Shown here piece after piece: positions 1 through 64,000 of a DNA stretch of 64,000 bases. A program made the position numbers and the translations under genes. Location: NCBI GenBank assembly GCA_963751645.1, contig CAVVVD010000008.1:85914-149913 (forward strand). The letters run 5' to 3'. The notes beneath the pieces were generated by a model. That model was not told the origin of the DNA. It searched no databases and saw only the letters and a list, made by a program, of their open reading frames with translations. Within the stretch, counting starts at the first letter, position 1. The number at the start of each line of letters is the position of its first letter. This DNA comes from Methanomassiliicoccaceae archaeon (GTDB taxonomy: Archaea; Thermoplasmatota; Thermoplasmata; Methanomassiliicoccales; UBA472).

Positions 1-1902
1 TTAATGAGACCGTTGCGTGGGCTCAGGCTTTGGCTCTGCACCGATCATGTCATCGTCTGCGGCATGGGAAGGATCGGGTCCCATTTCGCGAGAGCTATGA
101 GCGAGGACGGCCAGGTCGTGGTCGTTGACAAAGGCCATGTCATCACGCTGGACGATGAGGCGATGAGAGGCAATATCATACAGGTCCATGGTAACGCCAC
201 TGACGAAAAGGTCCTGCGAAGGGCTGGTATCAAACGAGCCATGTACGTGATCACCGCACTAGAGGATGATAGCGCCAATGGCGAGATCGCGGTACAAGCA
301 CGCCGCATTGTCAAGGACCAGACCCGCGAAACCCTCACCTGCTTTGTCCATGTTCAGGATCAGAACCTCTGCGAGGTCCTGCGGGTAAACGAATACAACT
401 CAGATAACCCATCGATAAGGTTGGAGTTCTATAATGTCATTGAGAACGGTGTTAGGACCATCCTCAGTGAGTTCCCGGCATTCCAGGAAGGCAGCTTGCA
501 AAAGGACGGACCGATAAGGATGGTGGTCATCGGACTCGATGACGTCGGGAGTGAGCTGGTGCTCAGGGCTGCGAAGAGGTGGTGGCCTCGATACCAAGCC
601 ACTGAGGAACGTCTTCAGATGGTGCTGGTGGACTCCGATGTGAGTGCGGCCTTAGAGTTCATGTGCGCGCGCCATCCCAACCTGAGGCGCGCTTGCACCT
701 TCGAGCCTATCGCCATGGATGTCAAGAAGCTCAAGGTAGCCAATGATGAGGAGTTAGGGTGGTTAATCTCCGACAATCCATCTTGCATCTATATCTGCGC
801 CCCAAACGACAGCGAAGGGTTATCCCTGGCCTTCATCCTGCGCAAGAAGTTGGGTGATGAAGGAGCGCCGATAGTGGTCCGCATGAACTCGGACTCGGAG
901 CTAGCGGAGTTGCTGGGGAATGAGGGGAGGAACGCTGGATGGGACGATGTTTATCCGTTCGGCTTCTGGGACCGTACTTGCACCAAGGCCTTGATCCAAT
1001 ATGGAAGCCGGGAGGTGATGGGTCAGGCCATCCATGAGGAATATTGCCTGGAGCAGCAGGCTAGAGACATTCCGACCGATGCCTCCTATAGGTCATGGGA
1101 CGAGCTGAGCGAGGAACTGAGGCAATCGAACCGCTCTCAGGCGGACCACATCATTGTCAAGGCGAGGGCCATAGGTTGTAGAATAGAGACGCTCACGGAT
1201 TGGGGCTATGATCATAGTGCCCTAACCCCGTACGAGGTCCATAAGCTATCCAGGATGGAGCATGACCGGTGGTGCAAAGAGAAGCTCAGAAAGGGATGGC
1301 GCTATGGAAAGGTCCGGGACGATGCCCATAAGGTACACGACGACCTGTGTCCCTGGAAGGAGCTTTCTGACGAGGCCAAGTACAAGGACATCGCCACCGT
1401 CAAGAAAATTCCGAGGACTCTGGCCCGGGTGGACCTGAGGCTAGTGCACCAGAACATGATGTTACAGGTAGCCAAGGCCTTGTTGATGGAAAATATAAGG
1501 CGGTCGGAGAAAAGGAAAGACGGCGATCAACACATTTCCTTAGCTTGGAATGAGATTGACGAAGTTAAAAAAGCACTATTCCTGGATGAGGCAAGGGAGA
1601 TCATTAATTGCTGTGAGGGCATAGAATGCGGGATCTCCGGCCGTGGGTCGGTGGAGGAGGAGCTTGGAGCCTTGAACCCGAATGAGGTCGAGCTCGTAAA
1701 CGGGAGATTCAGTGCAAACATGGCCAAGAAAGGCAGGGAGGGTCTCGCGGGGGACGCCTCCACATGGCCCATGATTCTTTCCATAATGGACCTGGCGATA
1801 TTCCGTTATGAGGATGCGAGGAAACTAATGGAAGGGGATAGGGAGGCGATGATGATGGCCTTCACTGCAAGCGAGTTGCAGGGGCCGTTCCTCCCAAGGT
1901 GA
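1..1902 (+). CDS. RCK/TrkA_N Rossmann + tandem RyR-domain protein, copy 1 (5' end off-window)
   Basis: The ORF is open to the window edge. It has a GxGxxG Rossmann motif 'VIVCGMGRIGSHF' and a second Rossmann-like 'MVVIGLDDVGSEL'. Two RyR-type repeats follow ('HEEYCLEQQAR..WDELSEELRQSNRSQADHI' and 'MEHDRWCKEKLRKGWRYGKVRDDAHKVHDDLCPWKELSDEAKYKD'). It aligns from about residue 100 of the downstream paralog, so the TM N-terminus probably lies upstream of the window. Confidence 0.8.
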   Translation, partial: LMRPLRGLRLWLCTDHVIVCGMGRIGSHFARAMSEDGQVVVVDKGHVITLDDEAMRGNIIQVHGNATDEKVLRRAGIKRAMYVITALEDDSANGEIAVQARRIVKDQTRETLTCFVHVQDQNLCEVLRVNEYNSDNPSIRLEFYNVIENGVRTILSEFPAFQEGSLQKDGPIRMVVIGLDDVGSELVLRAAKRWWPRYQATEERLQMVLVDSDVSAALEFMCARHPNLRRACTFEPIAMDVKKLKVANDEELGWLISDNPSCIYICAPNDSEGLSLAFILRKKLGDEGAPIVVRMNSDSELAELLGNEGRNAGWDDVYPFGFWDRTCTKALIQYGSREVMGQAIHEEYCLEQQARDIPTDASYRSWDELSEELRQSNRSQADHIIVKARAIGCRIETLTDWGYDHSALTPYEVHKLSRMEHDRWCKEKLRKGWRYGKVRDDAHKVHDDLCPWKELSDEAKYKDIATVKKIPRTLARVDLRLVHQNMMLQVAKALLMENIRRSEKRKDGDQHISLAWNEIDEVKKALFLDEAREIINCCEGIECGISGRGSVEEELGALNPNEVELVNGRFSANMAKKGREGLAGDASTWPMILSIMDLAIFRYEDARKLMEGDREAMMMAFTASELQGPFLPR

Positions 1903-1935
1903 ACAAAGGCTGTAGGGCTTGCTGAAACTACCAGG

Positions 1936-2232
1936 TCACCGATCCTTTATGGTCTTCGGTCTGTAGAACAACATGATGAGGAAAAAAATGATGGCAACAT
2001 AGATGAGGGCGACGGGTTCAATTATATAAAATATTACTATAATAATTGATGCCACCAGACCGGCCACCAAGGCCTGTCGCACATCGTCCAAGGTCAGGAG
2101 GGCGGTGACTATGATCGCCAGGATCATGCTGGCAACGAACAATATCGTGTTGTCTGCAACGAAATCGAGGAGCAATGCCTCTGCGCCAGCGCCGGCCACC
2201 AAGATATACGAGATTTTTGTGAGGACGCCCAT
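1936..2232 (-). CDS. small integral membrane protein (about 3 TM helices), hypothetical
   Basis: This is a 98-aa ORF made almost entirely of hydrophobic helices ('ILFVASMILAIIVTALL', 'LVASIIIVIFYII', 'ALIYVAIIFFLIMLF'). It sits between the two RyR paralogs on the opposite strand. I recognise no family. Confidence 0.5.
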   Translation of the reverse strand: MGVLTKISYILVAGAGAEALLLDFVADNTILFVASMILAIIVTALLTLDDVRQALVAGLVASIIIVIFYIIEPVALIYVAIIFFLIMLFYRPKTIKDR

Positions 2233-2431
2233 CGACCGAACTATTGGTCTGTCGCTTAATATTAATCATTGGCTTGATCAAATCCAGAGGCGCCGACCAA
2301 GAGTTGTCTGTAACCTAAAATTATGTATGTCTCGGTAAAAATACTATAATCACGACGCCATATCGCACCTTCAGATAGAGAGGTCAGGAGTTGATGCCCT
2401 GAGGAAATGGTCGAGGAACATTCCACGGAAG

Positions 2432-4620
2432 GTGCTTTCCGTCGCGGGAGCTGTCTATGGTGATGTTGGCATCTACGTCTTTACTGTCGCCTGGGTATTC
2501 ACCGTAATACTCGGATACTGGGGATTCTATCAGTACTACCAATTGAGAGGAGTGACCGTATCCTCCTCGGACCTGTTATATGACACTCTCCAGCTCTTCT
2601 GGTTCAAAGGCGGGGAACTGGATTGGTCGAATGGCTATGTGTTGGCCCTCGACATCGCGCGCTGGGCTGCCATCATCGTTATCTATTGGGCGATGGTGCT
2701 GATATTGGCCAGGGCCTTCGTGGCGCCATTGCGCAAACTGAGGTTGTGGCTCTGCTCCGATCACGTCATAGTATGCGGCGCCGACAGGATCGGTTCCAGA
2801 TTTGCAAAGACCCTCAGCAAGGATTACCAGGTCGTGGTCGTTGTGTCGGACCAGAGCATCGGGTCCCTTGGCGGTCTAAGGGATTCCGGAGTTATTATTG
2901 TGGAAGGGAACGCCGAGGACGAGAAGGTGCTCCGGAGGGCGGGCATCGACCGGGCACGATTCATCATCCCATCAATGGGGGAGGACAGTGCCAACGCCGA
3001 GGTCGCTATCCAGGCCAGAAGGATGGTCGAAGGGCGATCACGCGATCCCCTTACATGCTTCCTCCATGTTATGGACCCCGAGCTCTGTGAGGTCCTCAGA
3101 GTCAACGAATACAATGCCGGGAACCCCTCGATGCGGCTTGAGTTCTACAACATCTTCGAGAACGGCGCCCGGACCATCTTGAACGAATTCCCAGCCTTCC
3201 AGGAAGGAAGCGTTGGGACACATCCATCGACGCGTATCCTTGTCATAGGTCTCGACGACGTCGGCCAAGGTCTGGTGGTCAGGGCTGTAAAAAGGTGGTG
3301 GTCTCATTATCAAGCGACGAATCAGCGGCTCTCCCTGGTTCTGGTGGATAAGGATGTCGACTCCGTGCTGAAGTCCGTGCGCGCGCGCTATCCCGACCTC
3401 GATAGCGCGTGCACCTTCGAGTGCATCGCCATGGATATTCATATGTTCAAGGTGGCCAAGGACGAAGAGCTCAATAGGCTGACCTCAACGCCTCCATCAT
3501 ACGTATACATCTGTGCTCCCGATGACAGTGATGGGCTCTCCCTGGCCCTCATGCTGCGCAGACGGTTGGGGAACGAGGGGGCGCCGATCGTTGTACGATT
3601 GAACGCAGACTCGAAACCAGCCGCCCTGCTCGGCGAGGAGGGTAGGAACGCCGGGCTGAGCAATGTCTACACATTCGGCTTCTGGGACCGTACTTGCACC
3701 AAGGCCTTGATCCAATATGGAAGCCGGGAGGTGATGGGTCAGGCCATCCATGAGGAGTATTGCCTGGAGCAGCAGGCCAGAGGCAGTCCCACCCAGGCCT
3801 CCAAGACGCCATGGGACGACCTGAGCGAGGAGCTGAGGGAGTCCAACCGTGCTCAGGCCGACCACATCATCGCCAAGGCAAAGGCCATCGGGTGCAGGAT
3901 CGACGCACTCACGGACTGGGCCTCTCACCCTTATTCGCTCACACCCTACGAGGTCCATAAGCTCTCCAGGTTGGAGCATGACAGATGGTGCCAGGAGAGG
4001 ACCAGGAAGGGATGGAGGTATGGAAATGTCACGGGACGATGCGATGAAGGTCCACGACGACCTTCGTCCTTGGGAAGAGCTATCCGCTGAAGCCAAGTAC
4101 AAGGACATCTCCACGGTGAAGAAGATCCCAGGGACACTGGCAAGGGTGGACCTCCGGCTCGCGAGGAAGGATATGACCCTTAGCATCGGCAAGGCTCTAT
4201 TGATGGACAAAATGAGTCGGGCCTCACGGCAAAAAGATGGCGACGTCGACGTCTCTTCCGTATGGAGGGGGATGCTGGATGTGGAGAGGACGCGGTACCT
4301 GGACGAGGCGAAGGCTATGATCGATTGCCTTGGGGAGATCGACTGTGGCATCTCCGGTCGAGGGATCGGTGGAGGAGGAGCTCGTCGTCTTAGGCCCAGC
4401 GGAAGCCGAGCGTGCGAACTTGAAATACCGTTCATTGATGGCTGATAAAGGTGAGGATGTCCTCGCGGGGGACGCCTCCACATGGCCCATGATTCTTTCC
4501 ATAATGGACCTGGCGATATTCCGTTATGAGGATGCGAGGAAACTAATGGAAGTGGATAGGGAGGCGATGATGATGGCCTTCGGCCCAGGCGAACTAGAGG
4601 AACCGTTCCTCCATCATTGA
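2432..4620 (+). pseudogene. 2-TM channel-like + RCK/TrkA_N + tandem RyR-domain protein, copy 2, with two +1 frameshifts
   Basis: The N-terminus has hydrophobic helices flanking 'LYDTLQLFWF', followed by 'VIVCGADRIGSRF'. The protein continues through three frames (ORFs 2432.., 3849.., 4330..). Alignment to copy 1 shows one extra 'a' at about 4031 and another at about 4365. The C-terminus 'GDASTWPMILSIMDLAIFRYEDARKLME' is nearly identical to copy 1. Confidence 0.8.
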
Positions 4621-4704: not shown

Positions 4705-5710
4705 ATGAGCATTTTTCAATCTATGACGGAGGATCGTCACGTCTTCATCAGCCATGTCGAGGAGGATGCACCTCTAGCCCTCGCTCTCGCTGAGAGGTTA
4801 GAGAAAAAGGGCTATTCCACATGGTACTATGAGCGGGATACCTTGCCCGGCTTCTCGTACCTAGAACAGACCGGGAAGGCCGTGGAGAGATGCAAAGCCT
4901 TCCTTCTGATCATCTCCAAGGATTCATTGGGCTCCCATCAGGTAGACTTGGAACTGGAGAGGGCCCATGAGGAGTCGAAGACCATCATCCCCGTCCGTTA
5001 CCATGTCTCCCATCCCGAGTTCCAGAACAGGCGCCAGTTTGGAGGCAGATCATCGGTACCAGGACCTCCATCGAGGTCGATATGGGCAATGTCGACCTGG
5101 CATCGGACCGGATAGGAGAGGCTTTGAAGTTGATGGCCATTCCTGCCAACGCACCGCTTCCAGTGCAACCAACACCGGCGCCGGACCTTTCCCTACCCAA
5201 GTTCTGCCGGCAATGCGGTCGGCCGTACCAGCAGAGCGAGACCATCTGCGGGAAATGTGGGGATCGAGGAAGCCGATCGAATCGGCTAGGCACGTGGTCA
5301 AGGAGCATCTCGGATTGGTCGAGTACGATGAAGGTTATGTGGTGGACCCCAGTTCCAAGCTCATATGGCAGCGAGATGGTGATGACGTATTTTGTGATTA
5401 CGCGGATTCTGTAGCTAGATGCAGGAACATTCGGCTCGGAGGTTTCTCTGATTGGCGACTACCAACAAAAGAGGAGTTGACCCACCTGGCACGGTACGGA
5501 TATGCTGACCTCCAGAGAGTATTCCCGACCATTCAGAGGAGGAATTACTGGGCACTGACCTCTCCGGCAGAGGTGCCTTTCGCCCAGAACGCTCAGGACG
5601 ACGTCGGCCTCACTGTGGACCTCGATCCCAGCAATAGCAGCTTTGGGGACGTTGTGACATTTTTCAAGAGGTCGAGATACTGCGTAAAGGCGGTGCGAAG
5701 ATATCGCTGA
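4705..5710 (+). pseudogene. TIR domain - zinc ribbon - DUF1566 (Lcl-like) protein, with two -1 frameshifts
   Basis: The N-terminus 'HVFISHVEEDAPLALALAERLEKKGYSTWYYERD..AFLLIISKDSLGSHQVDLELERA' is TIR_2-like with a candidate catalytic Glu. The middle has 'CRQCGRPYQQSETICGKCG'. The C-terminus 'LIWQRDG..GFSDWRLPTKEELTHLA' is the DUF1566 signature. The frame changes at about 5035 and about 5270 (ORFs 4705.., 5082.., 4967..). Confidence 0.75.
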
Positions 5711-6025: not shown

Positions 6026-9000
6026 ATGAATGGGATATCCTCTGTGAAAGCCCTCGACAAATGTCAACGCGACAGTATACGCGACAATGTTCGATGCCGG
6101 AGGAGGGCTAGTCCCCTCCTCGTGTTAGTCATTTTCGTCACCTTATTGCTACTTTCTTCATGCTGGGCATACCGCTTCCACCGTCAATGCGGATAACTTG
6201 AACGATGCCTCGCCACCTATGGATGTCGAATATGCGGAGAATTATGATGGTTCTACCGATGAAACGGTCGGATCGGGAGCTGACATCCCTAGTTACCACG
6301 AGGCGATGCGCTTCTTCATCGAGAACAAAGGCCAGGTCGACGGTGAGGTCAAGTTCGTAGCGGTCACAGAGTTTGGGAAGGTGCTGTTCTACGACTCGAA
6401 GGTCCAGTACCTTCTTGAACGATATGAGGACAGGAATCTTACCGGCATGGACGTGATTACTCTGACCTTTCCATCATCTTCGATCGTTTCTCCTCAAGGG
6501 ATGGGGCTTCTACCGCACCATACCAACTATTTCGTCGGCGACCCAAGCGATTGGGTGACGGATGTGGGGAACTACCGCTCAATAATATACGAGGACCTAT
6601 GGCCTGGCATAGACCTCACATATAGGTTCAGCGAGAAGGGACTGAAGTACGAGTTCAAGGTCGACCCGTACGTCCTGGAACAGCGGATCGGCATCCGTGT
6701 CGAGGGGGCCGCCCTTCAAAGCGAACGCACTTACCTTACCTTCGCCACTGGCCATGGCTCCCTTGTGGACAGCGACCTCATTGCCTGGCAGGATTCGCCC
6801 GAGGAGATGCTCCCCGTGGCATTCGTCATCAAGGGCGATGTCATCACCTTTAAGACCGAGGGACGGGACCTTTCCAAAGGGCCTTCTGATTGATCCCTTG
6901 ATCTATTCCACCTTTTTTGGTGGCACCGGATATGACTTCAGCCAAGGCATCGCCGTTGACAGCGCTGGTAACATATACGTGACCGGTATAACCTCGTCCT
7001 CCGATTTCCCCACCAATGGTCCTTTGTATTCGGATATAGCAGGCGGGAGCGATGCTTTCGTCCTCAAGCTCAACGCTGCCGGGGACGATCTCATCTATTC
7101 GACCTTCATCGGGGGAAGTGGTGAAGATTATGGTCAGGACATCTCTGTGGACGATGGAGGAAATGCCTACATCTCAGGCTACACCACCTCCACCGACTTT
7201 CCGACCAATGTTCCGATAATATCGGACTTCGGTGGCGGTACATACGACGCTTTCGTCCTGAAGCTCAGTCCCTCTGGCAGCACTCTGGTCTATTCGACCT
7301 ACCTTGGGGGGGAAGCCGAAGACATCGGGAACAATATCGCCATAGATCCTTTGGGAAATGCCTACGTGACCGGTCACACCAATTCCACCGACTTCCCTTG
7401 TATCAACCCGCTCCAGACTGTGAACAGGGGTTTACAACGATGCTTTCATGCTCAAGGTCAACGTCGCCGGTACCGCCTTCATCTATTCGACGTACATCGG
7501 AGGAGGCGATAATGACTTTGGCATCGGCATCATGGCTGATAGTGACGGTAACGCCTATGTCACTGGATACACCTATTCCACCGACTTCCCAACGGTCAAT
7601 CCCATCCAACCCATCAACGCAGGGGTCTGCGACGTCTTCATCCTCAAGCTCAATTCCGCTGGCAGCGACCTGAACTACTCGACATACATAGGAGGGAGCG
7701 GGGAAGATAATGGCCATGGGATCGACATAGATGTCAGCGGCAACGCCTATGTCACCGGTTATACCGAATCCACCGACTTCATCACTACATTCGGTACGAT
7801 ACAGAGGACAAAAGCTGGTGGGGGGGACTCGTTCGTTCTGAAGATAAACCCGCTGGGGAATGGACGGGTCTATTCCACCTTCCTTGGGGGTGGGGGTGAT
7901 GAAATTGCCATCGGCATCGCAGTGGACGGGATAGGCAACGCCTATGTCACCGGTTATACCGAATCCACAGACTTCCATACCTCCCATCCATTCCAGGCCA
8001 TCAACTCCGGGGAATATGACGCATTCCTGTCGAAGATAAATGTGGCAGGTAACGTTCTATTGCTCTCGACCTACTTCGGCGGAGAATATAACGATGCTGC
8101 GTATAGTATCGCGCTGGATGCTCGAGGTGGGGTACTTGTCGCCGGAGGGACCTATTCCATTGATTTCCCCACCTTGAATGCTTTCCAACCCGATTACTCG
8201 GGCGATTGTGACGCTTTCATCCTCAAGTTCGATGAGGAGGGGAGCGGTCTACATTATGCGACATATGTGGGAGGGGGTGGGGATGATGAGGGACAAGCCA
8301 TTTCCCTTGACGCGATCGGCAACGTCTACGTCACCGGTTACACCTACTCCACCGATTTCCCTACCTCTGCTGGGTCTTTTCAGGATACCTTTGCCGGGGA
8401 GAGGGACGTCTTCGTCCTCAAGCTCAACGCTGATGGCAGTTCCCTCATCTACTCCACGTATATAGGAGGGGAATGGGATGAGAACGGCATCGATATCGCG
8501 GTCGATGATCTTGGCAATGCATATGTGACCGGTTATACCAATTCAACCGACTTCCCTGTATCTAACCCGCTGCAGGCTGCGAACAGGGGCTACTACGATG
8601 CCTTCGTGCTCAAGCTCAACCCATCAGGCAACGGGCTTCTCTATTCGACTTACGTGGGAGGTTTGGACTCTGATGCCGCCTATAGCATCGACTTCGATGA
8701 GGATGGCAACGTCTTTGTCACCGGTTACACCTATTCCAGAGACTTCCCCATCGTCCTTCCATCACTCCAAACGATCTATGCTGGTGAGGGGGATGCCTTC
8801 GTTCTTAAGGTCGATCCCACTGGTAACAGTCTTGTCTACTCAACGTTCATAGGGGGAAAGGGGGACGATGTCGGCAGCAGCATCGCCGTGGATGCGATGG
8901 GAAACGCTTACATCGCTGGCTACACCAATTCCACCGACTTCCCGATCGCCAATCCGCTCCAGGCACTGTACGGAGGTGCATATGATGCTATCATCCTCAA

Positions 9001-13193: not shown

Positions 13194-13269
13194 TGGTGGA
13201 CAGCGCGGGATTTGAACCCGCGGCCTCCGCCTTGCGAAGGCGGCGATCTTCCAGCTGATCTAGCTGCCC
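13194..13269 (-). tRNA. tRNA-Ala (anticodon CGC), CCA encoded
   Basis: The reverse complement is GGGCAGCTAGATCAGCTGGAAGATCGCCGCCTTCGCAAGGCGGAGGCCGCGGGTTCAAATCCCGCGCTGTCCACCA. It folds into a full cloverleaf. The anticodon loop is TTCGCAA, with the G3:U70 identity pair and discriminator A73. Confidence 0.93.
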
Positions 13270-13313
13270 GTTGGAACCCTCGTATCATCAACATGAATAT
13301 AATGTTTTGTGAA

Positions 13314-13330: not shown

Positions 13331-13331
13331 A

Positions 13332-18395: not shown

Positions 18396-18397
18396 CT

Positions 18398-18503: not shown

Positions 18504-18525
18504 CTTCAAAAATATAGTAGATATC

Positions 18526-52271: not shown

Positions 52272-52583
52272 ATGGAACCCCCCTCCTTTCTGATGGCAGA
52301 GCGCAAGGTGAAAGGCGGGAAGCTCGTCCGAGTGAAGGCCGTCGTGCGCGACGGGACCATCGCCGAGGCTCGCATCGAGGGGGACTTCTTCGTGCACCCG
52401 GAGGAGGGCCTTACGAAGATGGAGAGGGCGCTGAGCGGTATTGCGGTGGAAGGTGTCGGAGTAAATGCCGAACGGACCTTGATGGACCTGGTAGCTAAGG
52501 AAGGGATCACCCTGATCGGCTTCGGACCCAAGGACGTGGCGGAGCTGCTGGAGGGGATATGCTCAGGGACCGCTGGCGCCTGA
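52272..52583 (+). CDS. lplB: lipoate-protein ligase C-terminal-domain protein (stand-alone LplB-type)
   Basis: 'GGKLVRVKAVVRDGTIAEARIEGDFFVHPEE' is the LplA C-terminal domain pattern. The gene is encoded separately, directly upstream of lplA, as in Thermoplasma acidophilum. Confidence 0.75.
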   Translation: MEPPSFLMAERKVKGGKLVRVKAVVRDGTIAEARIEGDFFVHPEEGLTKMERALSGIAVEGVGVNAERTLMDLVAKEGITLIGFGPKDVAELLEGICSGTAGA

Positions 52584-54560: not shown

Positions 54561-54563
54561 ACC

Positions 54564-55544
54564 TCAGAAGCTCATCGTCCTCTCGATCGCCTTTCTAATG
54601 CTCTCTGGTCCTATGTAATAATAGTCCTCGCCCTTGGGCAGAGGTATCGTGATGTCAGGGGCGGCCACCCTCTCCACTGGTGCCTCCAATGATAGTAACG
54701 CCTTCTCGTTGATGCGGGCCACGATCTCAGCCCCTACCCCGAAGCTCTTGGGGGCCTCCTGGACCACTACGCACCGTCCGGTCTTCTTGACCGATCGGAC
54801 AATGGTCGCTGAGTCCATGGGCGACAGCGTGCGCAGGTCGATCACCTCGCAACTGAACTTGCCGCCCAGCACGTCCAGCGCCTTCTGGACCTGGGGGATC
54901 ATGGCGCCCCAGCCGATGACGGTGATGTCGATGCCCTCCTGCACCACTCGGGCCTGCGACAGGGGAACGGTGTACTCCCCGCTGGGCACCTCCTCCTTGA
55001 GCATGCGGTAACTGCGCGTCGGCTCCAGGAATATGACCGGGTCCGGGTCTCGGATGGCGGAGGTCAGAAGTCCCTTCGCCTCCAGGGGTGTGGACGGCAC
55101 CACGACCTTGAGGCCTGGTATCTGGGTGAACAGCGCCTCGGTGCTCTCGGAATGATGCTCCAATGCCTTCACTCCTGCCCCATACGGAGTGCGCAGGACC
55201 ATGGGGACGGTGAGGCGGCCCCGGGTGCGATTGCGCATGCGAGCGGCATGGCATATCATCTGGTTCAGCGTGAGGTAGCCGAACCCCATGAACTGGACCT
55301 CCGCTATGGGGCGGAGGCCGTTCATGGCCATGCCGATGGCCACCCCGGCGATGCCCGCCTCGGCCAACGGGGTGTCGATGACCCTCTCCGGCCCGAAGCG
55401 GTCGAGCAATCCCTCGGTGACGCGGAATACGCCGCCGTCCACGCCCACGTCCTCGCCCAACAGCACCACGGTGGGATCACGGTCCATCTCCTCGCGGAGC
55501 GCGAGGTTGATGGACTGCACCATGTTCATCATGACCATGTTCAC
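54564..55544 (-). CDS. 2-oxoacid dehydrogenase E1 component beta subunit
   Basis: It contains 'LGEDVGVDGGVFRVT', 'RVIDTPLAEAGIAG' and 'EVQFMGF'. The GTG start overlaps the E1alpha stop (GTGA). Confidence 0.92.
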   Translation of the reverse strand: MNMVMMNMVQSINLALREEMDRDPTVVLLGEDVGVDGGVFRVTEGLLDRFGPERVIDTPLAEAGIAGVAIGMAMNGLRPIAEVQFMGFGYLTLNQMICHAARMRNRTRGRLTVPMVLRTPYGAGVKALEHHSESTEALFTQIPGLKVVVPSTPLEAKGLLTSAIRDPDPVIFLEPTRSYRMLKEEVPSGEYTVPLSQARVVQEGIDITVIGWGAMIPQVQKALDVLGGKFSCEVIDLRTLSPMDSATIVRSVKKTGRCVVVQEAPKSFGVGAEIVARINEKALLSLEAPVERVAAPDITIPLPKGEDYYYIGPESIRKAIERTMSF

Positions 55545-56625
55545 TCCCTCCCGGTGGGCTGTTCCTTACGGAGCGCTTCCAGCGCCTCCCTCAGATCGTC
55601 TGGCATAGTGGCGTAGGTGTGGCGGAAGCAATCCTCCAACGTAGGCCTCGGGAATGATTCGGCCTTCTTGACCTCCTCCTCCACCGTCACGGAGACCTCC
55701 TCCAGCAATGCCTTCTCCCTCTCATCGTTCCAGAGACCTCTGTCCGGTCAGGTAGATCCTGAACCTGGCGATGGGGTCACGCCCCGCCCATTCGAGAAGT
55801 TCCTTTTCCTGACGATAGCGGGTGGCATCGTCAGAGGTGGTGTGGTCGCTCATTCGATAAGTGTAAGATTCGATCAATGTCGGTCCCTCTCCCTTCCTGG
55901 CACGCTCCAGCGCCTCCTTGGTCGCGGCGTATAGAGCCAGGACGTCGTTGCCATCCACCTGTATCCCGGGGAAGCCGTAGGCGACGGCCTTCTGGGCCAG
56001 TGTCTTAGAGGCGGTCTGCCGCTCCCTGGGCACGGAGATGGCCCACTGGTTGTTCTGGCAGACGAACACGTTCGGGGTGCGCATCACCCCGGCGAAGTTC
56101 AGCCCCTCGTGGAAATCCCCCTCGGACGTGCCCCCGTCGCCGAAGAAGCACACCACTGCCGTGTCCTCCCTCCTCATCTTGGCAGCGTAGGCGATGCCGA
56201 CGGCGTGCGGGACCTGCGAGCCGACCGGGACGACCGATGGCGTCGCATGCACGCCTTCTGGGTAGCTGCTGCCCTCCTCGTTGCCCATCCAATATAGGTA
56301 GAGGCGCCAGAGCGGGACGCCCCTGTAGATGCAGGCCGCCCAGCTCCCGGAAGGCCCATACCAGCCAATCGTTCGGTCCCATGGCCAGGGCGGGGCCGAT
56401 CTGGCTGGCCTCCTGGCCCTTGGTGGGAGGATATGCCCCGAGACGCCCTTGGCGCTGCAGCTTGACCGCCTTGTCGTCGGCGACCCGGGTCAGCACCATG
56501 GTGCGATAGGCCTTGAGCAATGTATCATCATCGATGGATGGTTCCAGCTCCTTTACGATCGTGCCATCCTTCCTCAGGATCTCCAGCCGCTTGCCCTTCA
56601 GGGGGTCGAAATCATCCACTAACAT
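55541..56625 (-). pseudogene. 2-oxoacid dehydrogenase E1 component alpha subunit (TPP-binding), 2 frameshifts
   Basis: It contains 'VCFFGDGGTSEGDFHEGLNFAGV', 'VFVCQNNQWAIS' and 'VDGNDVLALY'. The frame changes at about 56345 ('AFRELG/..CIYRGVPL') and about 55740 ('LTGQR/..WNDEREKALLEE'). Confidence 0.88.
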
Positions 56626-56629
56626 AGGT

Positions 56630-57505
56630 TCATTCTCCTCTTACTGAATCGTAGGCCTCGATGGCCTTGTATGACGAGCGCACCAAGGGTCCGGCCACCA
56701 CGGCGCGGAAACCCATCCCGAGCGCTAAGTCCCTAAATCTCAGGAACTCCTCCGGAGCCACATAACGTTGCACTGGTAACTGGTCAGGTCCTGGACGAAG
56801 ATACTGGCCCAGGGTGATGATGTCCACCCCCGCATCCCTGAGGTCCTTCAGGCATTGGCATATCTCCAAGTCCGTCTCGCCCAGACCCAACATCAGGGAA
56901 CTTTTCGTGAGCATCCCAGGAGCGAGCCTTTTGATCAGGGCCAGCACCTCTAGGGAACCATCGTAGGAAGCGTTTCGGTCCCGCACCCGCATCTGCAACG
57001 ACCGGACCACCTCCAGATTGTGGCCGAGCACGTCTGGCCTGGCACCGACCACGGTACGGACCGCCTCTGGGTCGCCTTTGAGGTCCGGAATGAGCAGTTC
57101 GACCCGACACTGGGGGATAGAATTTCGAATGGCGTGGACCGTTTCTGCAAAGACGGAGGCACCACCATCAGGCAGATCGTCGCGTGTCACTGAGGTGATC
57201 ACCACATATCTAAGCCCGGAGCGGGAGATGGCCTGCGCCACCCTTTCTGGCTCATCCGGTTCTAGCGCATATCCTTTGCCATGTTGCACGGCACAGAAAC
57301 CGCAATGTCGCGTGCAGCGCTCACCCAGGATCATATAAGTAGCGCTTCCGGCCCGCCAACACTCCCCGATGTTAGGACAATGGGCCGAGTCGCAGACGGT
57401 ATGAAGGTGAAGCTCACGATTGAGAGCTCTGGTCATGGCAAGACCTTGAGTGGGATAACCACGGACCCTCAGCCACGATGGTTTCTCATCCACCTTCAAT
57501 CTCAA
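56630..57505 (-). CDS. lipA: lipoyl synthase
   Basis: It contains 'TVCDSAHCPNIGECW', the radical-SAM motif 'CTRHCGFCAV', and 'SSLMLGLGET'. Confidence 0.93.
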   Translation of the reverse strand: MRLKVDEKPSWLRVRGYPTQGLAMTRALNRELHLHTVCDSAHCPNIGECWRAGSATYMILGERCTRHCGFCAVQHGKGYALEPDEPERVAQAISRSGLRYVVITSVTRDDLPDGGASVFAETVHAIRNSIPQCRVELLIPDLKGDPEAVRTVVGARPDVLGHNLEVVRSLQMRVRDRNASYDGSLEVLALIKRLAPGMLTKSSLMLGLGETDLEICQCLKDLRDAGVDIITLGQYLRPGPDQLPVQRYVAPEEFLRFRDLALGMGFRAVVAGPLVRSSYKAIEAYDSVRGE

Positions 57506-57619
57506 ACACCAGTCATGCTCAAGGGAGCGGCTAGTTAATTTGTCTTTTGGATGAGCCCATCGAGAAAGCTCATAAATGGTGACCGACCTATCCTACACTA
57601 AGATGATGAGGGGGGAAAT

Positions 57620-57736
57620 ATGGAGCTGGGCGAACTTCTGACGGGCTCGATGCTCTTGATAATCGGGGTGATGGTGTTGATGGTCGTAGCGGGGGTCATC
57701 TTCCTCATCTGGAGGGTCAGAAGGTCCAAATCATGA
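57620..57736 (+). CDS. possible 38-aa single-TM peptide
   Basis: The peptide is MELGELLTGSMLLIIGVMVLMVVAGVIFLIWRVRRSKS. It is preceded by 'gaggggggaa'. Confidence 0.35.
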   Translation: MELGELLTGSMLLIIGVMVLMVVAGVIFLIWRVRRSKS

Positions 57737-57833
57737 CATCTGATTGAGAACGCGATCAAAAATTATGTCCTGAGCTGTCGTCCACCCCTCTCACGAGCCG
57801 ATCGCCTGGGTCTCTATTATCCCGACTGGCTGG

Positions 57834-57848
57834 AAAAGTTTTTAATAG
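57834..57848 (+). promoter_or_regulatory. BRE/TATA-like promoter of the SRP RNA
   Basis: The sequence is 'aaaagtttttaatag'. Its centre lies about 27 nt upstream of the inferred 5' end at 57870. Confidence 0.5.
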
Positions 57849-57869
57849 CATCATCCTGTATGCGACAAC

Positions 57870-58179
57870 GCTAGGCTAGACCGGGACGCTCGGCGTGCCC
57901 TTATACACCGAAATCGTCGATACGCGGGGGTGACAGCGGAGGGCGTCGTATCCGGAGAACCTAAGGCCCAGTCATAGATGTTGATGTCTCGTCCTGCGGG
58001 GCAGGCGGCGATCTCGCGGCGCAGCTGGAGGGTTGCGTCCCTGGTCCTAATCACGGGGAACGGGTCAGGCCCTGACGGGAGCAGCCTAACCGTGGACTAC
58101 CTACGCTCGTAGGGTTGCGGGGCGGAGTTGATGACTGATCAACCTTGAGTGATCCGAGCGGCCACCTTCGTGGCCTAGC
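57870..58179 (+). ncRNA. signal recognition particle 7S RNA (archaeal SRP RNA)
   Basis: The terminal helix pairs 5' gctaggc (57870-76) with gcctagc (58173-79). The 5' end 'GCUAGGCUAGACCGGGACGCUCGGCGUGCCC' looks like archaeal Alu-domain starts. The helix-8 motif 'GGUCAGGCCCUGACGGGAGCAGCC' corresponds to the universal 'GGUCAGGUCCGGAAGGAAGCAGCC'. The ends are good to within a few nt. Confidence 0.85.
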
Positions 58180-58407
58180 ACTCATTTATCCATGCCCCGA
58201 GATGGGACCAACAACGAATTGATTATTGACGCGGGAACGGTACCACCATTGAAATTGAAGGTGGCGATGTCCAACTCATTTCCCATGTAGCAAAATTCGC
58301 TTAGAATGGTTTGGTATCGGATCAACAAATTTGAACGATCATTCTGATTGAAACTTAAAAGCTGGAAGAAGGCCTTGTGAAAGAGGTCTCGCATCAAGCC
58401 ATAACTA

Positions 58408-59423
58408 TCATTTACCTTGGTTCAACTCTAAGGACTCCCATCCGACGCTGTTGGTCGGTTTGCAGCCGGTTATAAGCTCGGTGTTGAAATCAAAAAGCAC
58501 CGATGAATCGTGACCGTCCTTCAACTTGTAGACATTTGAGCCGTCGACCTTCCCGACCACCGCACCGGTCACCCCAACGTTCTTGAACATCTCAATGACC
58601 TTTTCAGAATGGTCTGGGTCGCAGGTCAATGTGAACCCGCACCCCTGATAGGATTTGAGCCATTGGTGGAGGTCCACCTCCTCTGGTCTGGGTATGCAAT
58701 TCACGTCCACCGTGGCACCCTTGCCACTGGTCTCGAGTAGCATCCCCAATGTGCCGAGGGTACCGGGGTTGCTGATGTCCTTGCCAGAACGTAGAAGACC
58801 TTTGCGGCGATCTTGTTCATGACCAGCATCTGGCGCCTGCAGATGTCCGACTCCTTCCTGGAGGTGGTGTCCCAGGCATAGTTCAGACCCTCGGGATAGA
58901 ATCCATCCAGGTCCATGGCCATGATGATGTCGTCACCTGCCTGGGCGGTGTGGCTGTAGATGACCTCGTCCTTATTGTCGCAGAAACCGACGATGGCGAC
59001 GTCGATGGCGTTGTAGGTGCAATCGGGATGGGTATGACCGCCCACGATGGGCACGCCGAACTTTTGACAGCGGTCTCCATGCCCCTCATCACCTGGCCGC
59101 AGACCTTCTCCTCCTTGACGGAGAGGACGTCCAACATGCGCGATGGGGATGCCGCCCATCGCCGAGATGTCTTGATGTTGACCAGAACGGCATAATAACC
59201 GGCGAAGAACGGGTTCGCCTTCATCAGCGGCTGCATGATACCATCGGCGGCGAGCAGCAGGACCTCGTTCGTCCCATTCCACGACCGCGGCATCCTCACC
59301 ATAGGATGCAATGATCTTAGACGATGAAAACTTCGGGAAGAAGTTGATCACCTCGGATATGGTCTGCTTCCTTGTGACGCCCGGGAAATTTCTGATGTCT
59401 TCAGCCAGGGCCTCAAGGTTCAT
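58408..59423 (-). pseudogene. AIR-synthase-related (PurM/ThiL/HypE-superfamily) protein, about 5 frameshifts
   Basis: It contains 'IIASYGEDAAVVEW', 'LLLAADGIMQPL', 'DISAMGGIPIAH', 'FGVPIVGGHTHPD' and 'GTLGMLLETSGKGATVD'. The pieces alternate between minus-strand frames (ORFs 58701.., 58883.., 58408..). The subfamily is not resolved. Confidence 0.7.
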
Positions 59424-59590
59424 GGCACGGTGAATGACCGGTTACCATTATAATCTTTGTCCGTCAAGGTATCAAGGAAATATCTAGCAGGGTCAATTTG
59501 GTTTGCTTCGTCTCTTTGACTCAGGTCGATAGGCGTTCTGCGATCAGGACGATGGTCTCCAGCAGCTGTGATAGCTCCGCTTCGAGCCGT

Positions 59591-60071
59591 TCACCTTCGT
59601 AGAACATATGCCCGGGAGCTGTCGGGGATCTTGAATCCGACTTCGACTAGGACCTTCTTTGCCTCCATGCCTTTCCTCCGGGGTCGCCTGCCTGCCTGGG
59701 ATGTCGCCCTCGACCCCGCCCGTGCAAGTTCCTCGACGAAGACGGCCCTCTTGAATATCCTATTGAGGGCGAAGAGGATCACGACGTGATCTGTCCGCCT
59801 CACCAGGGAAAAGTTCCCTAGCTTTATCTCCTATCATTTGATAGAAGTCCTGTTCCTTTCCTTTGAGGGGGATGTATATCTTGGCGGGGGGAACGTTCTT
59901 CTCCTTGACGATCTTAAGGTCTGTTAATGCTCTCAGATAGCCTGTCAGTAGCAGGCGATTTATTTTCAACCCCTTCTTATTGAGGTCCTTGTACAAGGAG
60001 CTGATAGATTTACCTTCATCGGTCAATGTTTCGAGCACAATGAACCTAAAATCCCTATCTGGATGGAACAT
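59591..60071 (-). pseudogene. winged-helix DNA-binding protein divergent from nrdD, 1 frameshift near 59790
   Basis: It contains 'FIVLETLTDEGKSISSLYKDLNKKGLKINRLLLTGYLRALTDLKIV'. ORF 59760..60071 continues in ORF 59591..59803. Confidence 0.55.
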
Positions 60072-60136
60072 ATGATAACAGATATGGTAACAGATATGGT
60101 AACTAATAAAGATTTGCTCTTAAGGCATTGTTACCA
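60071..60136. promoter_or_regulatory. three tandem 12-nt direct repeats plus one inverted half-site (candidate operator)
   Basis: The repeats are TATGATAACAGA (60071-82), TATGGTAACAGA (60083-94) and TATGGTAACTA (60095-105). An inverted TGTTACCA lies at 60129-36. The element abuts the wHTH start codon and lies upstream of nrdD. Confidence 0.5.
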
Positions 60137-60335
60137 GATCGAGTTCAAAAATGGCTTTAAACAATGCTGGCATAATCTGAATAGCTGCACAGAAAAATAA
60201 GGATGGGATCGCTACTCTCGTTTGGGGATGAGTGAGCGGTCTTGATTTAATTTAATAAAGGTGAGTACTGAAATGAAAGGCAACAGCATCACGCTCGAGA
60301 ATCGGGGAACACGTTCGAACCAGGAGTCGTCTATC

Positions 60336-62406
60336 ATGACGATAAGGAATCGACCGAACTCTCATCTGTTCGTCAGGACATCCGATGAGGAGATCAAGAA
60401 AGTGGGACGAGGCAAGATCTATCGAGGCTCTGATAAGGGAGACGACGATCAGCGAGGATGCTGCCGCGATAGTCGCACGAGAGGTCGAGAAGATGATCTC
60501 CGAGCTCGAGATCGAGGTCATCACCGCACCTCTGATCCGGGAGCTGACCAACGCCAAGCTTGTAGAGTACGGTCTATCGAAGATCCGCCGGCAGCACACC
60601 CGCCTAGGCGTTCCGTTGTACGATGCTCGACAGATCATCATGAGCCCGAACAAGGAGAACGCCAACGTACCACACGGCCCGGAGGCGACCAACCTCACCC
60701 TTGCCGAGCGGATCAAGAAGGAGTTCGCCCTGCTAGAGGTCTTCCGCAGGACATGGCGGACGCGCATATGCGCGGTGACATCCACCTGCATGATCTCGGC
60801 ATGATCGACCGCCCCTATTGCAGCGGGCAGTCCATCGAATATGTGAAGAAGTTCGGTCTGAACCTCCCGAACGCCATCTCCATCGCCAAGCCCGCAAAGC
60901 ACCCCGAGGTGCTCATCGAGCAGGTGGTGAAGTTCTCCGCCGCACTGCAGGGCAACTTCGCCGGCGCCATCGGTTGGGACGCGTTCAACCTGTTCCTGGC
61001 ACCTTACCTCGTCAACATAGACGATGAGCGGATGAAGCAGCTGGCCCAGATATTGGTCTTCGAGTTCGCCCAACAGGCCGTCGCCCGGGGCGGACAGTCC
61101 ATCTTCAGCGACCTCAACCTGTACTGGGAGTGCCCGAAGCACTTCGAGGACGTGCCGGCCATCGGCCCGAAGGGCGAGTTCACCGGCCAGACCTATTAAG
61201 GATTACCTGCCCGGAGTCGCAGCGCTTCATCAACGCCCTGTTCGACGTCTACCTCGAAGGGGATGCCATGGGCCGTCCGTTCTTCTTCCCCAAGCCGAAC
61301 GTGCACATGACGGACAAGTTCTTCCAGCACCGAGGGGCACGAGGAGTTCCTCAACAAGATCTCCCACGTGCGCCAGCGAGAAGGGGAATACCTACTTCGT
61401 GTTCGACCGGGGCAACACCGCCAAGATCTCCGAGTGCTGCCGCCTGACCTTCAAGCTCGAGCAAGAGCGACCTCGAGGACGCCAAGACGCCCTGGAAGAT
61501 GCGATACTCCGCCATGCAGAACGTTACCATCAACCTGCCGCGGGTCGCCTACGAGGCGCACCAGGACGACGAGAAGCTGTTCGAGCATAATCAGGCAGAG
61601 GATCGAACTGGTCGCCCAGGCGCACCTGCAGAAGAGGGAGTTCATCGGGAAGCTGCTCGCCATGGGCAAGCACGGCCCGCTCGCGCTGCTGACCATGGAC
61701 CATGGACGGCGAGCCCTACTACCGCTTCAACAAAGCCTCGTTCCTGATCGGCATGGTCGGGCTGAACGAGCTGGTGCAGTACCATACCGGGCAACAGATG
61801 CACGAGTCCAAGGAGGCCACCAAGTTCGGCCTCAAGGTCATCGCTACCATGAAGAAGGACGCCGAGGAGATCGGTGAGAAGTATGGCATCCGCATGCCCT
61901 TGGAGCAGACCCCGGCGGAGAGCACCGCATATCGCTTCGCCAAACTGGACAAGAAGTACTATCCCGCTGCAGGCGGCCACCGTCGATACGTGGCAACAAG
62001 TCGCACGGGCGAGGTGTACTACACCAACTCGACCTACCTCAACGTCGGTGCTCAGATCAGCGCCATCGAGCGGGTCAAGGCGGAGGGCATGTTCCATCCC
62101 CTCATCGACGCCGGCTCGCTCACCCATGTTTGGCTAGGGGAGCACAAGCCTCCGGCGGAGTCCATCGCCGCCTTCGTGAAGAAGACCTTCGAGAGCACGC
62201 AGAACGCCCAGATCGCGTTCAGCCCGGAGTTCACCTCCTGCCTCGACTGCGGCAAGACGGTACGTGGCCTGAAGGAGTGCTGCCCCTACTGCAAGTCCGT
62301 GAACATCGAAGGAATAACCAGGGTCACTGGTTTCTTCTCGAAGACCAACAGCTGGAACAAGGGGAAGATCGGAGAGCTGCACGACCGCGTGCGCAACCAG
62401 ATCTGA
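60336..62406 (+). pseudogene. nrdD: anaerobic ribonucleoside-triphosphate reductase (class III), about 7 frameshifts
   Basis: It contains 'WDEARSIEALIRET' (ATP-cone-like), 'AHMRGDIHLHDLG', 'GRPFFFPKPNVH', 'YFVFDRGNTAKISECCRL', 'MRYSAMQNVTINLPR' and 'LEQTPAESTAYRFAKLD'. The Zn site is 'CLDCG..CPYC' and the glycyl-radical end is 'TRVTGFFSK'. The pieces are spread over all three plus frames. The start is uncertain (60273 or 60336). Confidence 0.88.
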
Positions 62407-62462: not shown

Positions 62463-62572
62463 CATCCTCTGACTTAAAGCATCTGGACAGGAACTGTTTC
62501 GAGCGGTACGATGCCTGGCAACAAATCATTAAATAGCGTAGAGCCCAAGTTGAGAACGATAGGTGGGACCGA

Positions 62573-62839
62573 GTGACCGTTGTCAAAGTGGGCGAGCACC
62601 GTTATGTCAACGTGAAGAGACGCAGCCTTTGTGACAATTGCATCGCCGATGTTTGCTTCAAGCGCGACGAGCACAAGGGCAGGCGGGTGGTGGAGTGCGA
62701 GCTCTTCCGACCCCAGTTCGTGGCGTTCAAGAAGTGCACCGAGTGCTCCTGCGTCTACGAGGTCTTCTCCAACTTCAATGCCCTCGATTTCGATAGGTGC
62801 CCTGCCTGCAACGATAGGATGAAGAGATGCGCCCCTTGA
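62573..62839 (+). CDS. Cys-rich small protein, hypothetical
   Basis: This 88-aa ORF contains 'CDNCIADVC', 'CTECSC' and 'CPACNDRMKRC'. It has a GTG start and no recognised family. Confidence 0.4.
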   Translation: MTVVKVGEHRYVNVKRRSLCDNCIADVCFKRDEHKGRRVVECELFRPQFVAFKKCTECSCVYEVFSNFNALDFDRCPACNDRMKRCAP

Positions 62840-62868
62840 GGGGCGTGAAAAAAGGTTTTCTAGGTCCT

Positions 62869-64000
62869 TCAGTTGAAACGCGGCCCTATGACCTGCCATA
62901 GGATGAGGAACAGGATCAGGAAGGAAAGAGCCAGGGATATCTGGTCCACGATCTTGTTCCTCGCATCCTCGCTCAGGCTCTTACGGAGCTTGCCAACGAC
63001 CGACCCCATGGCGTCCTTGAAGAGGTATCCCCCGTCCAACGGTACTGCCGGTAGGGCGTTGGTCAGTCCGACCATCAGGTTGAGCCAGAAGATCCAATAG
63101 AGACAGTTCGCGATGATCCAGAACGTGCCGATGGACATCCATGCCAGGTATCCGGTGGTCTCGAAGAGTTCAGCGAGGGGTGACTGGATGGGAGATAGGC
63201 CGATGAAGGGGAACGCTATGTAACGCAAGCTCGCGGTGACGAAATCCCAGCGTTGTCGACGTTCCTGTACGGGTCAGACATGGTGAGCAATATGGTCTCC
63301 GGACTCGAGGACACCTGCTCCCAGATAGGCGGAGTTGATGCCAAGGAAGCCCACGTCCTCGAAGTCCGATGGGCACGCTGAAGCCATTGTCCCTCAGATA
63401 TGCCTCCCTGCTGTCCAGGGTGACCTGGGTGAGGCCGGCCACGATCACATAGTTGGCCATCGTCCCGTTCCATTGCATGACCGTCACATTGACGGTCTGG
63501 AAGGGCAGAGTGAGGCCGAGCGCGTCCTTCAGGTCGCCCTCGTTCCGTATCTGGGTGTCGTTGAACGATGCCAGGATCATCCCCGACCTCATTCCCGACT
63601 CATAGGCTGGATAGTCCTTCGATACCGAAGTGAGGGCGACCCCGGAGATCACCTGTTTGCTCAGCACGTCCCCTTTATAGAAATAAGTGACATTGACAAG
63701 AGTCCCTGCCGTTGGCGCAGTGACGTTGATCCATGACTCCAGGGTGGTCACGTTGACCCCATCTATGGACAGGACCTGGCAACCATAGCCCAGGTCGGCC
63801 ACGTCCGCCGGGCCGTCATCTATGGTCGACATGATGACCGGCCCCTCGTATATGGGCGCGGCCTGGGACACCATGACCGAGGAGAAGAGAAAAACGAACA
63901 GGAAGGCTACGATGATGTTGGTGGCCGGCCCGACGGCGTACACGCCGCATGCGCTTGACTTCTCGGTCGCAGGGGCAGGGCGTCCTCGTCCGGCTCCACG
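62869..64000 (-). pseudogene. M50 site-2-protease-family membrane metalloprotease with PDZ-like insert (5' end off-window), about 3 frameshifts
   Basis: It contains 'YAVGPATNIIVAFLF', a PDZ-like 'GCQVLSIDGVNV', and the C-terminal 'LNLMVGLTNALPAVPLDGGYLF'. The frame changes between about 63360 and 63230. The ORF is open to the window edge, and the HExxH motif is expected upstream. Confidence 0.7.

Follow-up and report, generated by a model that had tools for sequence, protein, structure and literature searches.

Clustered frameshifts in a Methanomassiliicoccaceae metagenome contig are very probably long-read consensus artefacts and probably reflect collapsed strain heterogeneity

Introduction

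A stretch of 64,000 nucleotides from the metagenome-assembled genome (MAG) of a Methanomassiliicoccaceae archaeon (GenBank assembly GCA_963751645.1, contig CAVVVD010000008.1, positions 85,914 to 149,913; hereafter the window, with positions counted from its first base) raises the question of whether this organism has really lost a series of conserved genes that appear to be interrupted by frameshifts. Read at face value, the window describes an archaeon without high-affinity K+ uptake by Kdp, the anaerobic ribonucleotide reductase NrdD, a 2-oxoacid dehydrogenase subunit, a methanogenesis-marker-2-like gene and a TIR defence gene. A first-pass annotation had offered three candidate explanations without ranking them: a locally poor consensus, a very recent relaxation of selection, or population heterogeneity collapsed into one consensus. 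The analyses described here effectively exclude the second, favour the third because of the signature carried by the indels, and indicate that the first may contribute. The frameshifts are very probably artefacts of one kind or another, and we assign a probability of roughly 60% to the more specific reading that strain or species heterogeneity was collapsed into a long-read consensus.

Results

Approximately 80 small indels cluster in patches

By combining frameshift-aware alignment, DNA alignment and the structure of open reading frames (ORFs) and Pfam matches, we counted approximately 80 insertions or deletions (indels) of 1-2 nt in the window. The 45-50 frameshifts reported in the first-pass annotation are real and patchy, but this figure was too low because many events cancel each other locally. 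Gene-by-gene counts were obtained with a purpose-written protein-to-DNA aligner that tolerates frameshifts, using intact homologues, and a codon-usage Viterbi frame tracker, which miscalls short segments, was applied only where references were absent. Positions in the TIR, surface-protein and PKD-domain genes derive from ORF structure and Pfam only, the splitting of the surface protein being traced through its ORFs, its DUF7948 match and the coding-frame Viterbi path. At least 55 of the 62 catalogued events are of ±1 nt; the shifts run in both directions, include some of ±2 nt and also hit intergenic DNA. A MAFFT alignment of the kdp region placed ~37 indels in the window between 32,060 and 37,143 that are not divisible by three in length and measure ±1 nt in nearly every case, and an alignment of 58.4-62.4 kb with L012, a related metagenome locus, added ~27 further single-base indels. 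The ratio of insertions to deletions was 17:20 in the kdp region, ~22:6 in the nrd region and 13:1 in nrdD alone.

These events are distributed very unevenly (Table 1), with stretches in which they accumulate (dirty patches) separated by clean blocks, so that the clustering by gene described earlier was borne out: at the overall density of ~1.25 events per kb, the Poisson probability of meeting zero events across 18 kb is ~1e-10. The interval 13.3-31.0 kb, said to be without frameshifts, is indeed tiled by single-frame ORFs, the ten largest of which are full-length Pfam matches, and 38-55.5 kb holds a single frame change, as claimed. The lipA, E1beta and E2 genes lie intact beside broken genes, with 0 events in each by frameshift-aware alignment, and the same result was obtained for the gene at 52.5 kb. 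In the broken genes, the reported lack of in-frame stops held as well, with 0 genuine stops in ~4,600 corrected codons; the sole apparent one, at 59523, sits in a short out-of-frame stretch of a compensated triple.

For several genes, the counts proposed earlier were reproduced or slightly raised. The two frameshifts attributed to the second of two RyR paralogues are two +1 insertions when judged against its own paralogue: the copy 1 protein (encoded at 4-1902) aligned to the DNA of copy 2 with 420 of 626 residues identical, 0 stops and two single-base insertion events. The two proposed for the TIR gene agree with a product read through three frames (overlapping ORFs 4705-5115, 5082-5414 and 4967-5710, the first matching Pfam TIR_2 and the last Lcl_C), at positions that are approximate since a close reference is lacking. 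The single one proposed for the ABC ATPase matches a Pfam ABC_tran profile split once over two frames, with profile positions 2-80 in ORF 44910-45350 and 89-137 in ORF 45284-45856. Two had been counted in E1alpha (2-3 found), five in the AIR-synthase-like gene (5-6 found), three in the M50 protease (3-4 found, approximately placed because the references L013 and L017 are just 47-49% identical) and at least six in kdpB, where seven were identified (82% identity to L002, 0 stops).

Other genes had rightly been called broken but with too few events. Overlapping ORF fragments pile up on the minus strand between 31 and 38 kb, where kdpD had been given three frameshifts; alignment with the intact L001, L002, L003 and L007 genes and frameshift-aware comparison (85% identity to L001, 0 stops) revealed 7-9, two compensated pairs having been overlooked. 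The eight assigned to kdpA and the two plus a compensated pair assigned to kdpC belong to one fused gene with 14-17. The single event of the winged helix-turn-helix (wHTH) gene became 4-5 plus a hidden triple, and the seven of nrdD became 14, three of which are +1 insertions within 61962-62004; corrected NrdD is identical to that of L012, its closest homologue, at 664 of 705 residues (94%), with 0 stops. In a gene earlier called a C66 peptidase, one frame change near 12250 was found, with ORFs 11123-12262 and 12249-13031 overlapping in different frames and PKD domains in both; the peptidase label was not reproduced, PKD domains being the only Pfam matches.

The frame-breaking indels are private to the window

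When metagenomes were scanned with the C-terminus of NrdD, 80 loci were retrieved, many of which share synteny with the window across 51.5-63 kb, and several related loci are Microflora Danica (MFD) MAGs with contigs named contig_N. The comparison with relatives that the first-pass annotation had called for yielded intact copies of every gene testable in short-read assemblies. The kdpB, kdpCA and kdpD genes each form one clean ORF in L002, L003, L005, L007 and L009, while nrdD, the AIR-synthase-like gene and the wHTH gene are all intact in L012, which is 88% identical to the window over 57.8-62.8 kb. The indels of the window are private, no homologue being shifted at the same positions. A query with a KdpD fragment matched only archaeal MAGs of the Methanomassiliicoccaceae or Methanomassiliicoccales in the genome collection.

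Short-read contigs gave a similar picture. Across 2,044 nt (56037-58080), the Logan contigs L093 and L094, which are 90.6% identical to the window, differ from it by one gap, an extra C at 56331 in E1alpha, with none in lipA or the region of the signal recognition particle (SRP) RNA. A third Logan contig, L092 from short-read run ERR10755939, is 99.77% identical to window positions 27347-28622 (3 mismatches in 1,276 nt, 0 gaps). Because of this identity, the same species as that of the window is present in that public run. This segment is the HMG-CoA reductase region, in a clean block, and the look-up indicated a contig of 50-200 kb with the same protein. The three single-nucleotide polymorphisms (SNPs) separating L092 from the window are the sole hint of population variation. 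HMG-CoA reductase was the only one of nine window proteins to be matched by exact look-up, and homologue searches with lipA, a corrected NrdD segment and a chimeric wHTH, AIR-synthase-like and KdpCA query returned no match above 91% identity.

Frame-breaking indels of the same sort were found in two further MAGs of this group. The kdp region of L008 (MFD05674) carries 35 such indels, nearly all at positions other than those of the window; the two share six indel alignment columns, of which three are intergenic and one resembles real codon-level variation. L004 (MFD01299) has 17 in kdp, again nearly all at other positions. In L004, kdpB and kdpCA are dirty, and long single frames persist through kdpD and ~10 kb of downstream genes; L008 likewise has its indels concentrated in kdpB and kdpCA, with less clear-cut flanks. 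Both are documented as Nanopore MAGs assembled with Flye and Medaka; MFD05674 comes from the Microflora Danica catalogue, for which Nanopore reads alone were assembled with metaFlye, followed by a single Medaka round (PMC12313526). We infer that the window is itself a long-read, Nanopore-type assembly.

The indels double or drop alleles known from relatives

The context check suggested in the first-pass annotation for the junctions uncovered neither a link to homopolymers nor a shared motif. Single-base insertions in runs of at least three identical bases, the classical Nanopore signature, were absent (0 of 34, compared with 13% in the null), and the adjacency of indels at the dinucleotide level was the same as for random placement. 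A systematic basecalling error at DNA-modification motifs, with every read miscalled regardless of coverage, was considered here, since Nanopore basecalling errs at methylated motifs. AGCCA/TGGCT did occur near 5 of the 62 events, where 0.5 were expected, but no 3-, 4- or 5-mer near these events remained enriched after multiple-test correction (best Bonferroni p ~0.07). Such errors would moreover be chiefly substitutions and would spread contig-wide rather than skip 18 kb, which makes this explanation scarcely credible.

In a relative-rate test against the sister L012 with eight outgroups, the window had fewer private substitutions than L012 (12 versus 41 in NrdD), and none of them lay within 3 nt of an indel. 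Because of these two results, we consider that the noise is essentially indel-only.

The bases that were inserted or lost are not random with respect to natural variation. As a null, the window sequence was corrected, seeded with random indels and run through the identical MAFFT --add procedure, which brings alignment bias into the comparison. Twenty-five of 33 insertions juxtapose two alleles known from a site that varies among relatives (null 44%, p = 2.5e-4), four examples being listed in Table 1. All 20 deletions could be placed at a column that is variable among relatives (null 67%, p = 3e-4), and 19 of 20 could lie at a third codon position (null 65%, p = 0.002). Allele doubling was replicated in L008 (15 of 18 versus 40%, p = 2e-4). 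Artificially spiked random indels were also considered as a source of the events and are unlikely, as uniform random indels fail the allele-doubling test that a real MAG, L008, passes.

Gene inactivation and downstream correction account poorly for the pattern

Genuine and very recent inactivation, under relaxed selection and an indel-biased mutation spectrum such as that of a mutator lineage, has in its favour that the indels stand in the deposited sequence, that kdp looks dispensable in the family, as judged from a remnant in L011, and that its genomic context varies among relatives. Prokaryotic pseudogene decay normally involves several substitutions per indel, a deletion bias and varied indel sizes, with concentration in simple repeats. 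Neither these traits nor stops and relaxed constraint were found among the window's events: neither a real stop nor surplus substitutions accompany the ~80 indels, at least 55 of 62 are of ±1 nt, and insertions prevail strongly in nrdD. Natural slippage indels favour homopolymers, unlike those observed here, and essential-type genes such as nrdD and E1alpha are hit often when their immediate neighbours are spared. Finally, the same pattern, at other sites, recurs in Nanopore MAGs and in no short-read assembly. We thus regard inactivation by this route as highly improbable.

Conservation of the amino-acid sequence on both sides of every junction might also be expected if the frame were restored downstream by programmed ribosomal frameshifting, transcriptional slippage or RNA editing. 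Against this stand more than 60 sites in heterogeneous contexts, without a slippery run or a shared motif and without any homologue shifted at the same position, together with the occurrence of both directions, of ±2 shifts and of intergenic cases; downstream repair is effectively refuted and the least credible of all the readings weighed. A combined possibility, in which the indels are real and very recent, ~80 of them having arisen in selected operons (kdp, nrdD, defence and surface genes) through a locally targeted, indel-only process before any substitutions or being tolerated through a correction step, is likewise highly improbable, and the biological readings taken together remain very improbable.

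A mixed consensus compared with plain low coverage

The reading that we favour would work as follows. The assembler and polisher would pool reads from at least two close haplotypes, either co-occurring strains or cross-mapping related species, under a consensus model that rates an indel error as likelier than a substitution. With reads split evenly between X and Y at a given site, the string XY would cost one cheap deletion from every read and yield a +1 insertion, and the empty string would cost one cheap insertion from every read and yield a -1 deletion. Either outcome would fall exactly on the polymorphic site, with no spurious substitution. Stretches with a single haplotype, or with identical haplotypes, would polish cleanly, producing a sharp-edged, kb-scale mosaic of clean and dirty DNA that mimics clustering by gene. 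This supposes a second haplotype in the dirty patches. Low depth per haplotype would make a mixed consensus worse, so that heterogeneity and low coverage may act jointly. Flye is reported to collapse strains that are ~98.65% identical into one consensus (PMC8302730), and soil assemblies from Oxford Nanopore Technologies data contain more frameshift errors than HiFi assemblies (PMC13087279). Our literature search found no paper explicitly describing an error in which both alleles are kept, and the mechanism is therefore our own inference. Patches 1 and 2 resemble variable DNA, the former with tandem paralogues, a TIR gene and surface proteins and the latter with kdp, whose context differs in every relative and of which L011 keeps just a kdpD remnant; this agrees with the model, as does the position of tRNA-Ala and tRNA-Ile on either side of the clean housekeeping block.

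The main competitor is plain low coverage or unpolished long-read patches, including gap-filling in a hybrid assembly, where errors survive because only 1-3 reads are available; clean blocks would then be those with more reads or with short-read polishing. The indel density of ~0.6% is comparable in order of magnitude to raw R10-type indel rates, and the patches, at 1-8 kb, are about as long as reads. The authors of the MFD-LR catalogue reported that errors associated with Nanopore data affect chiefly those MAGs that are archaeal or have lower coverage (PMC12313526), and ~40x coverage is needed for a near-finished consensus with R10.4 (PMC9262707). The intact relatives, the indels of L004 and L008, the lack of stops and the single gap with L093 and L094 fit this explanation equally well. 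Random errors, however, should not favour variable sites or double alleles, and the doubling was replicated in L008; Nanopore errors should be enriched in homopolymers, in contrast to what was observed; and substitution errors should be similarly frequent, when no excess was seen. That kdpB and kdpCA are dirty in three independent MAGs, with clean flanks in the window and in L004, is also unlikely to result from random dips in coverage. As the sole cause, low coverage is possible but on balance unlikely.

Several observations weigh against collapsed heterogeneity as well. Exact look-ups with nine window proteins and P0001 found no same-strain contig covering a broken gene. The null of the doubling test is high (44%) for only 33 insertions, and its allele sets come from species-level relatives rather than from the presumed strain. 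Third codon positions make up 14 of 25 doubled sites, near the null, when synonymous SNPs between strains should give a stronger enrichment. Sliding-window identity to L012, L008 and L001 exposed no mosaic, these relatives being too distant to show one. Lastly, patch 3 (55.5-64 kb) is syntenic and core-like in relatives, so that a variable island is not a universal property of dirty patches. A separate idea, that the level of conservation drives the clusters because reads of related species cross-map to the best-conserved genes, was rejected: relative to L020, E1beta is clean at 79% identity and the AIR-synthase-like gene dirty at 71.5%, which gives no simple fit.

Features of the window and their surroundings

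Table 1. Patches, genes, RNAs and doubled alleles in the 64,000-nt window.
Feature	Position	Strand	Frame-breaking events	Details
Dirty patch 1	~4.0-12.3 kb		sparse
Dirty patch 2	32.06-37.15 kb		indels at ~0.65% of bases
Lone event	~45.3 kb
Dirty patch 3, first part	55.5-56.3 kb
Dirty patch 3, second part	58.8-64.0 kb		indels at ~0.65% of bases
Clean blocks	13.3-31.4 kb; 37.2-55.5 kb; 56.33-58.8 kb		none save the event near 45.3 kb
RyR/TrkA_N paralogue, copy 2	2432-4620	+	two +1 insertions, ~4031 and ~4362
TIR_2/zinc-ribbon/Lcl_C gene	4705-5710	+	two frame changes, ~5.08-5.12 kb and 5.33-5.41 kb
Repeat-rich surface protein	6198-10414	+	three frames; at least 2 uncompensated shifts, in 6697-6893 and 7448-7512	DUF7948 N-terminus
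PKD-domain protein	11123-13031	+	one frame change, ~12250	last event of patch 1
Clean housekeeping block	13194-31277		no uncompensated frameshift	tRNA-bounded; from ORFs, Pfam and tRNA search
tRNA-Ala(CGC)	13194-13269	-
tRNA-Ser(TGA)	25538-25627	-
tRNA-Ile(GAT)	31200-31277	+
kdpD-like sensor gene	31450-33457	-	7-9 indels, 32056-33238	3' 600 nt clean
Fused kdpC-kdpA	33464-35868	-	14-17 indels	MAFFT and frameshift-aware alignment
kdpB	35906-38022	-	7 indels, 35915-37146	5' 880 nt clean
ABC ATPase	44910-45856	+	one frame change, in 45284-45350	isolated
2-oxoacid dehydrogenase E1alpha	55547-56625	-	2-3 indels: +1 C at 56331, ~55748, possibly 55555
Clean island	56630-58180			lipA (56630-57505, -) and archaeal SRP RNA (57869-58180, +)
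AIR-synthase-related gene	58408-59423	-	5-6 indels	Pfam AIRS; 86% identity to L012, 0 stops
wHTH-like small gene	59488-60071	-	4-5 indels plus hidden compensated +1/+1/-2 triple, ~59520-59545
nrdD, anaerobic ribonucleotide reductase	60273-62406	+	14 indels (13 insertions, 1 deletion)
M50-type protease	62869-64000	-	3-4 indels, ~63246, 63310, 63385, possibly 63975	runs off the window
Doubled allele	35,396		window CTGC[C][A]CCGG	L001 CCC; L008 CAT
Doubled allele	60,365		window CA[T][C]TGTTCG	L012 CA-TTGTTCG; L020, L023 C-CTGTTCG
Doubled allele	61,962		window CTA[T][C]CCG	L013 A-CCCG; L020 A-TCCG
Doubled allele	62,003		window GTC[G][C]AC	L012 C-CAC; L013 C-GAA

The window opens with tandem paralogues on the plus strand (4-1902 and 2432-4620) that are ~67% identical overall and have TrkA_N and RyR domains, as recognized by Pfam in copy 1. 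Over the C-terminal stretch GDASTWPMILSIMDLAIFRYEDARKLME.DREAMMMAF the two differ by a single residue, which suggests a recent duplication or gene conversion. With the TIR gene directly after them, this may be a defence-type neighbourhood. The housekeeping block that follows includes genes for adenylosuccinate lyase, SRP54 (18691-20043), PheRS beta and HMG-CoA reductase. Of the tRNA genes that bracket this error-free block, tRNA-Ala edges the RyR/TIR/surface-protein region and tRNA-Ile edges the kdp operon, so that both regions could be tRNA-flanked islands.

The operon is ordered kdpB, kdpCA, kdpD-like. A kdpC-kdpA fusion of ~800-820 residues is found in the lineage (L002 6572-9049, L003 4786-7257, L007 6599-9046), and the protein database holds dozens of ~800-residue proteins with both KdpC and KdpA Pfam domains, from Methanomassiliicoccales and Methanoregula. 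None of L001-L010 has kdp flanks homologous to those of the window, and because the flanks differ, the operon is suggested to sit in variable DNA. In L011 (MFD00905), positions 10005-10206 correspond to window 31478-31679, the last ~200 nt of kdpD, at 88.6% identity; no other match to the kdp operon was found there at the DNA level, and kdp appears to have been lost in that genome. Between the start of kdpB and mscS, 38030-39600 is a 1.6-kb AT-rich segment (GC ~42% versus 55-60% elsewhere) without a long ORF, containing small hydrophobic ORFs only, for example 38740-38859 and 38950-39093.

Further on, a complete 2-oxoacid dehydrogenase-type cluster occupies 52559-57505 on the minus strand in the order lipA, E1alpha, E1beta, E2, which is kept in many related metagenome contigs (L013, L017, L020 and others). 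The clean island beyond E1alpha has 0 events in lipA, 0 gaps relative to L093 over ~1.75 kb and 0 gaps relative to L012 over 57799-58187. Its archaeal SRP RNA, between lipA and the AIR-synthase-like gene, matches Rfam RF01857 at full length with 160 bits, is ~80% conserved across many related metagenome contigs and is 96.4% identical to that of L012.

Homologues of the AIR-synthase-like gene with AIRS and AIRS_C domains carry the JGI name 'putative methanogenesis marker protein 2'. A Logan protein of 528 residues, P0242, covers 65% of the concatenated wHTH, AIR-synthase-like and KdpCA query at 46% identity, more than the AIR-synthase-like segment alone, which hints at a wHTH/AIR-synthase-like fusion or read-through in a relative. 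In the spacer between the divergent wHTH and nrdD genes, directly against the wHTH start, lies a tandem repeat with a unit of 12 nt (ATATGGTAACAG x 2.8, 60070-60103); the translated L012 sequence repeats likewise, and the repeat may be a candidate operator for the wHTH protein.

Discussion

The events described here share much with the errors of Nanopore-only assemblies that are revealed by truncated proteins in IDEEL-type analyses (Sereika et al. 2022, PMC9262707; PMC12313526): in both, single-base indels break conserved genes, are absent from the short-read assemblies of relatives and are present in the same-family MFD MAGs L008 and L004. The textbook Nanopore error is a miscalled homopolymer length, whereas the window's events avoid homopolymers, include many insertions and lie in kb-scale patches. 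Strain-collapsed consensus sequences, as dealt with for Flye assemblies by Strainberry (PMC8302730) and Strainy, resemble the window in that errors fall at variable sites with both alleles often kept, the noise is indel-only and divergent and identical stretches form a mosaic, with the difference that the second haplotype is here presumed rather than taken from reads. Pseudogene-rich genomes of host-restricted bacteria, for example Mycobacterium leprae, likewise have many frameshifted genes beside intact neighbours, but they display stops, elevated non-synonymous change, larger deletions, a deletion bias and sharing among strains, none of which was seen in the window. Genes with programmed frameshifts (prfB, dnaX, IS3-family transposases) also continue their protein in another frame; they do so at one conserved slippery site with a stimulatory element, in contrast to the up to 17 unconserved sites per gene, without a slippery sequence, counted here.

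The first-pass annotation had pointed out that the explanation chosen decides whether kdp, nrdD and the TIR gene are functional, and an artefact means that they are to be treated as such. Since the frameshifts are, on the present reading, consensus errors, the appropriate course is to regard kdpB, kdpCA, kdpD, nrdD, the TIR gene and all remaining broken genes as intact. The signature of doubled and dropped alleles can be tested against relatives from sequence alone, without reads, and it suggests that phasing before polishing would mend such MAGs, when extra coverage alone would not. The affected genes are best annotated as intact with consensus errors, and this MAG needs re-polishing, either once its reads have been phased or by means of accurate ones. 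Metabolic reconstructions, pseudogene counts and completeness estimates drawn from it would be wrong for these genes. The significance of the finding thus lies in annotation rather than in biology: the apparent losses of Kdp, NrdD and the other functions in this archaeon would be artefactual.

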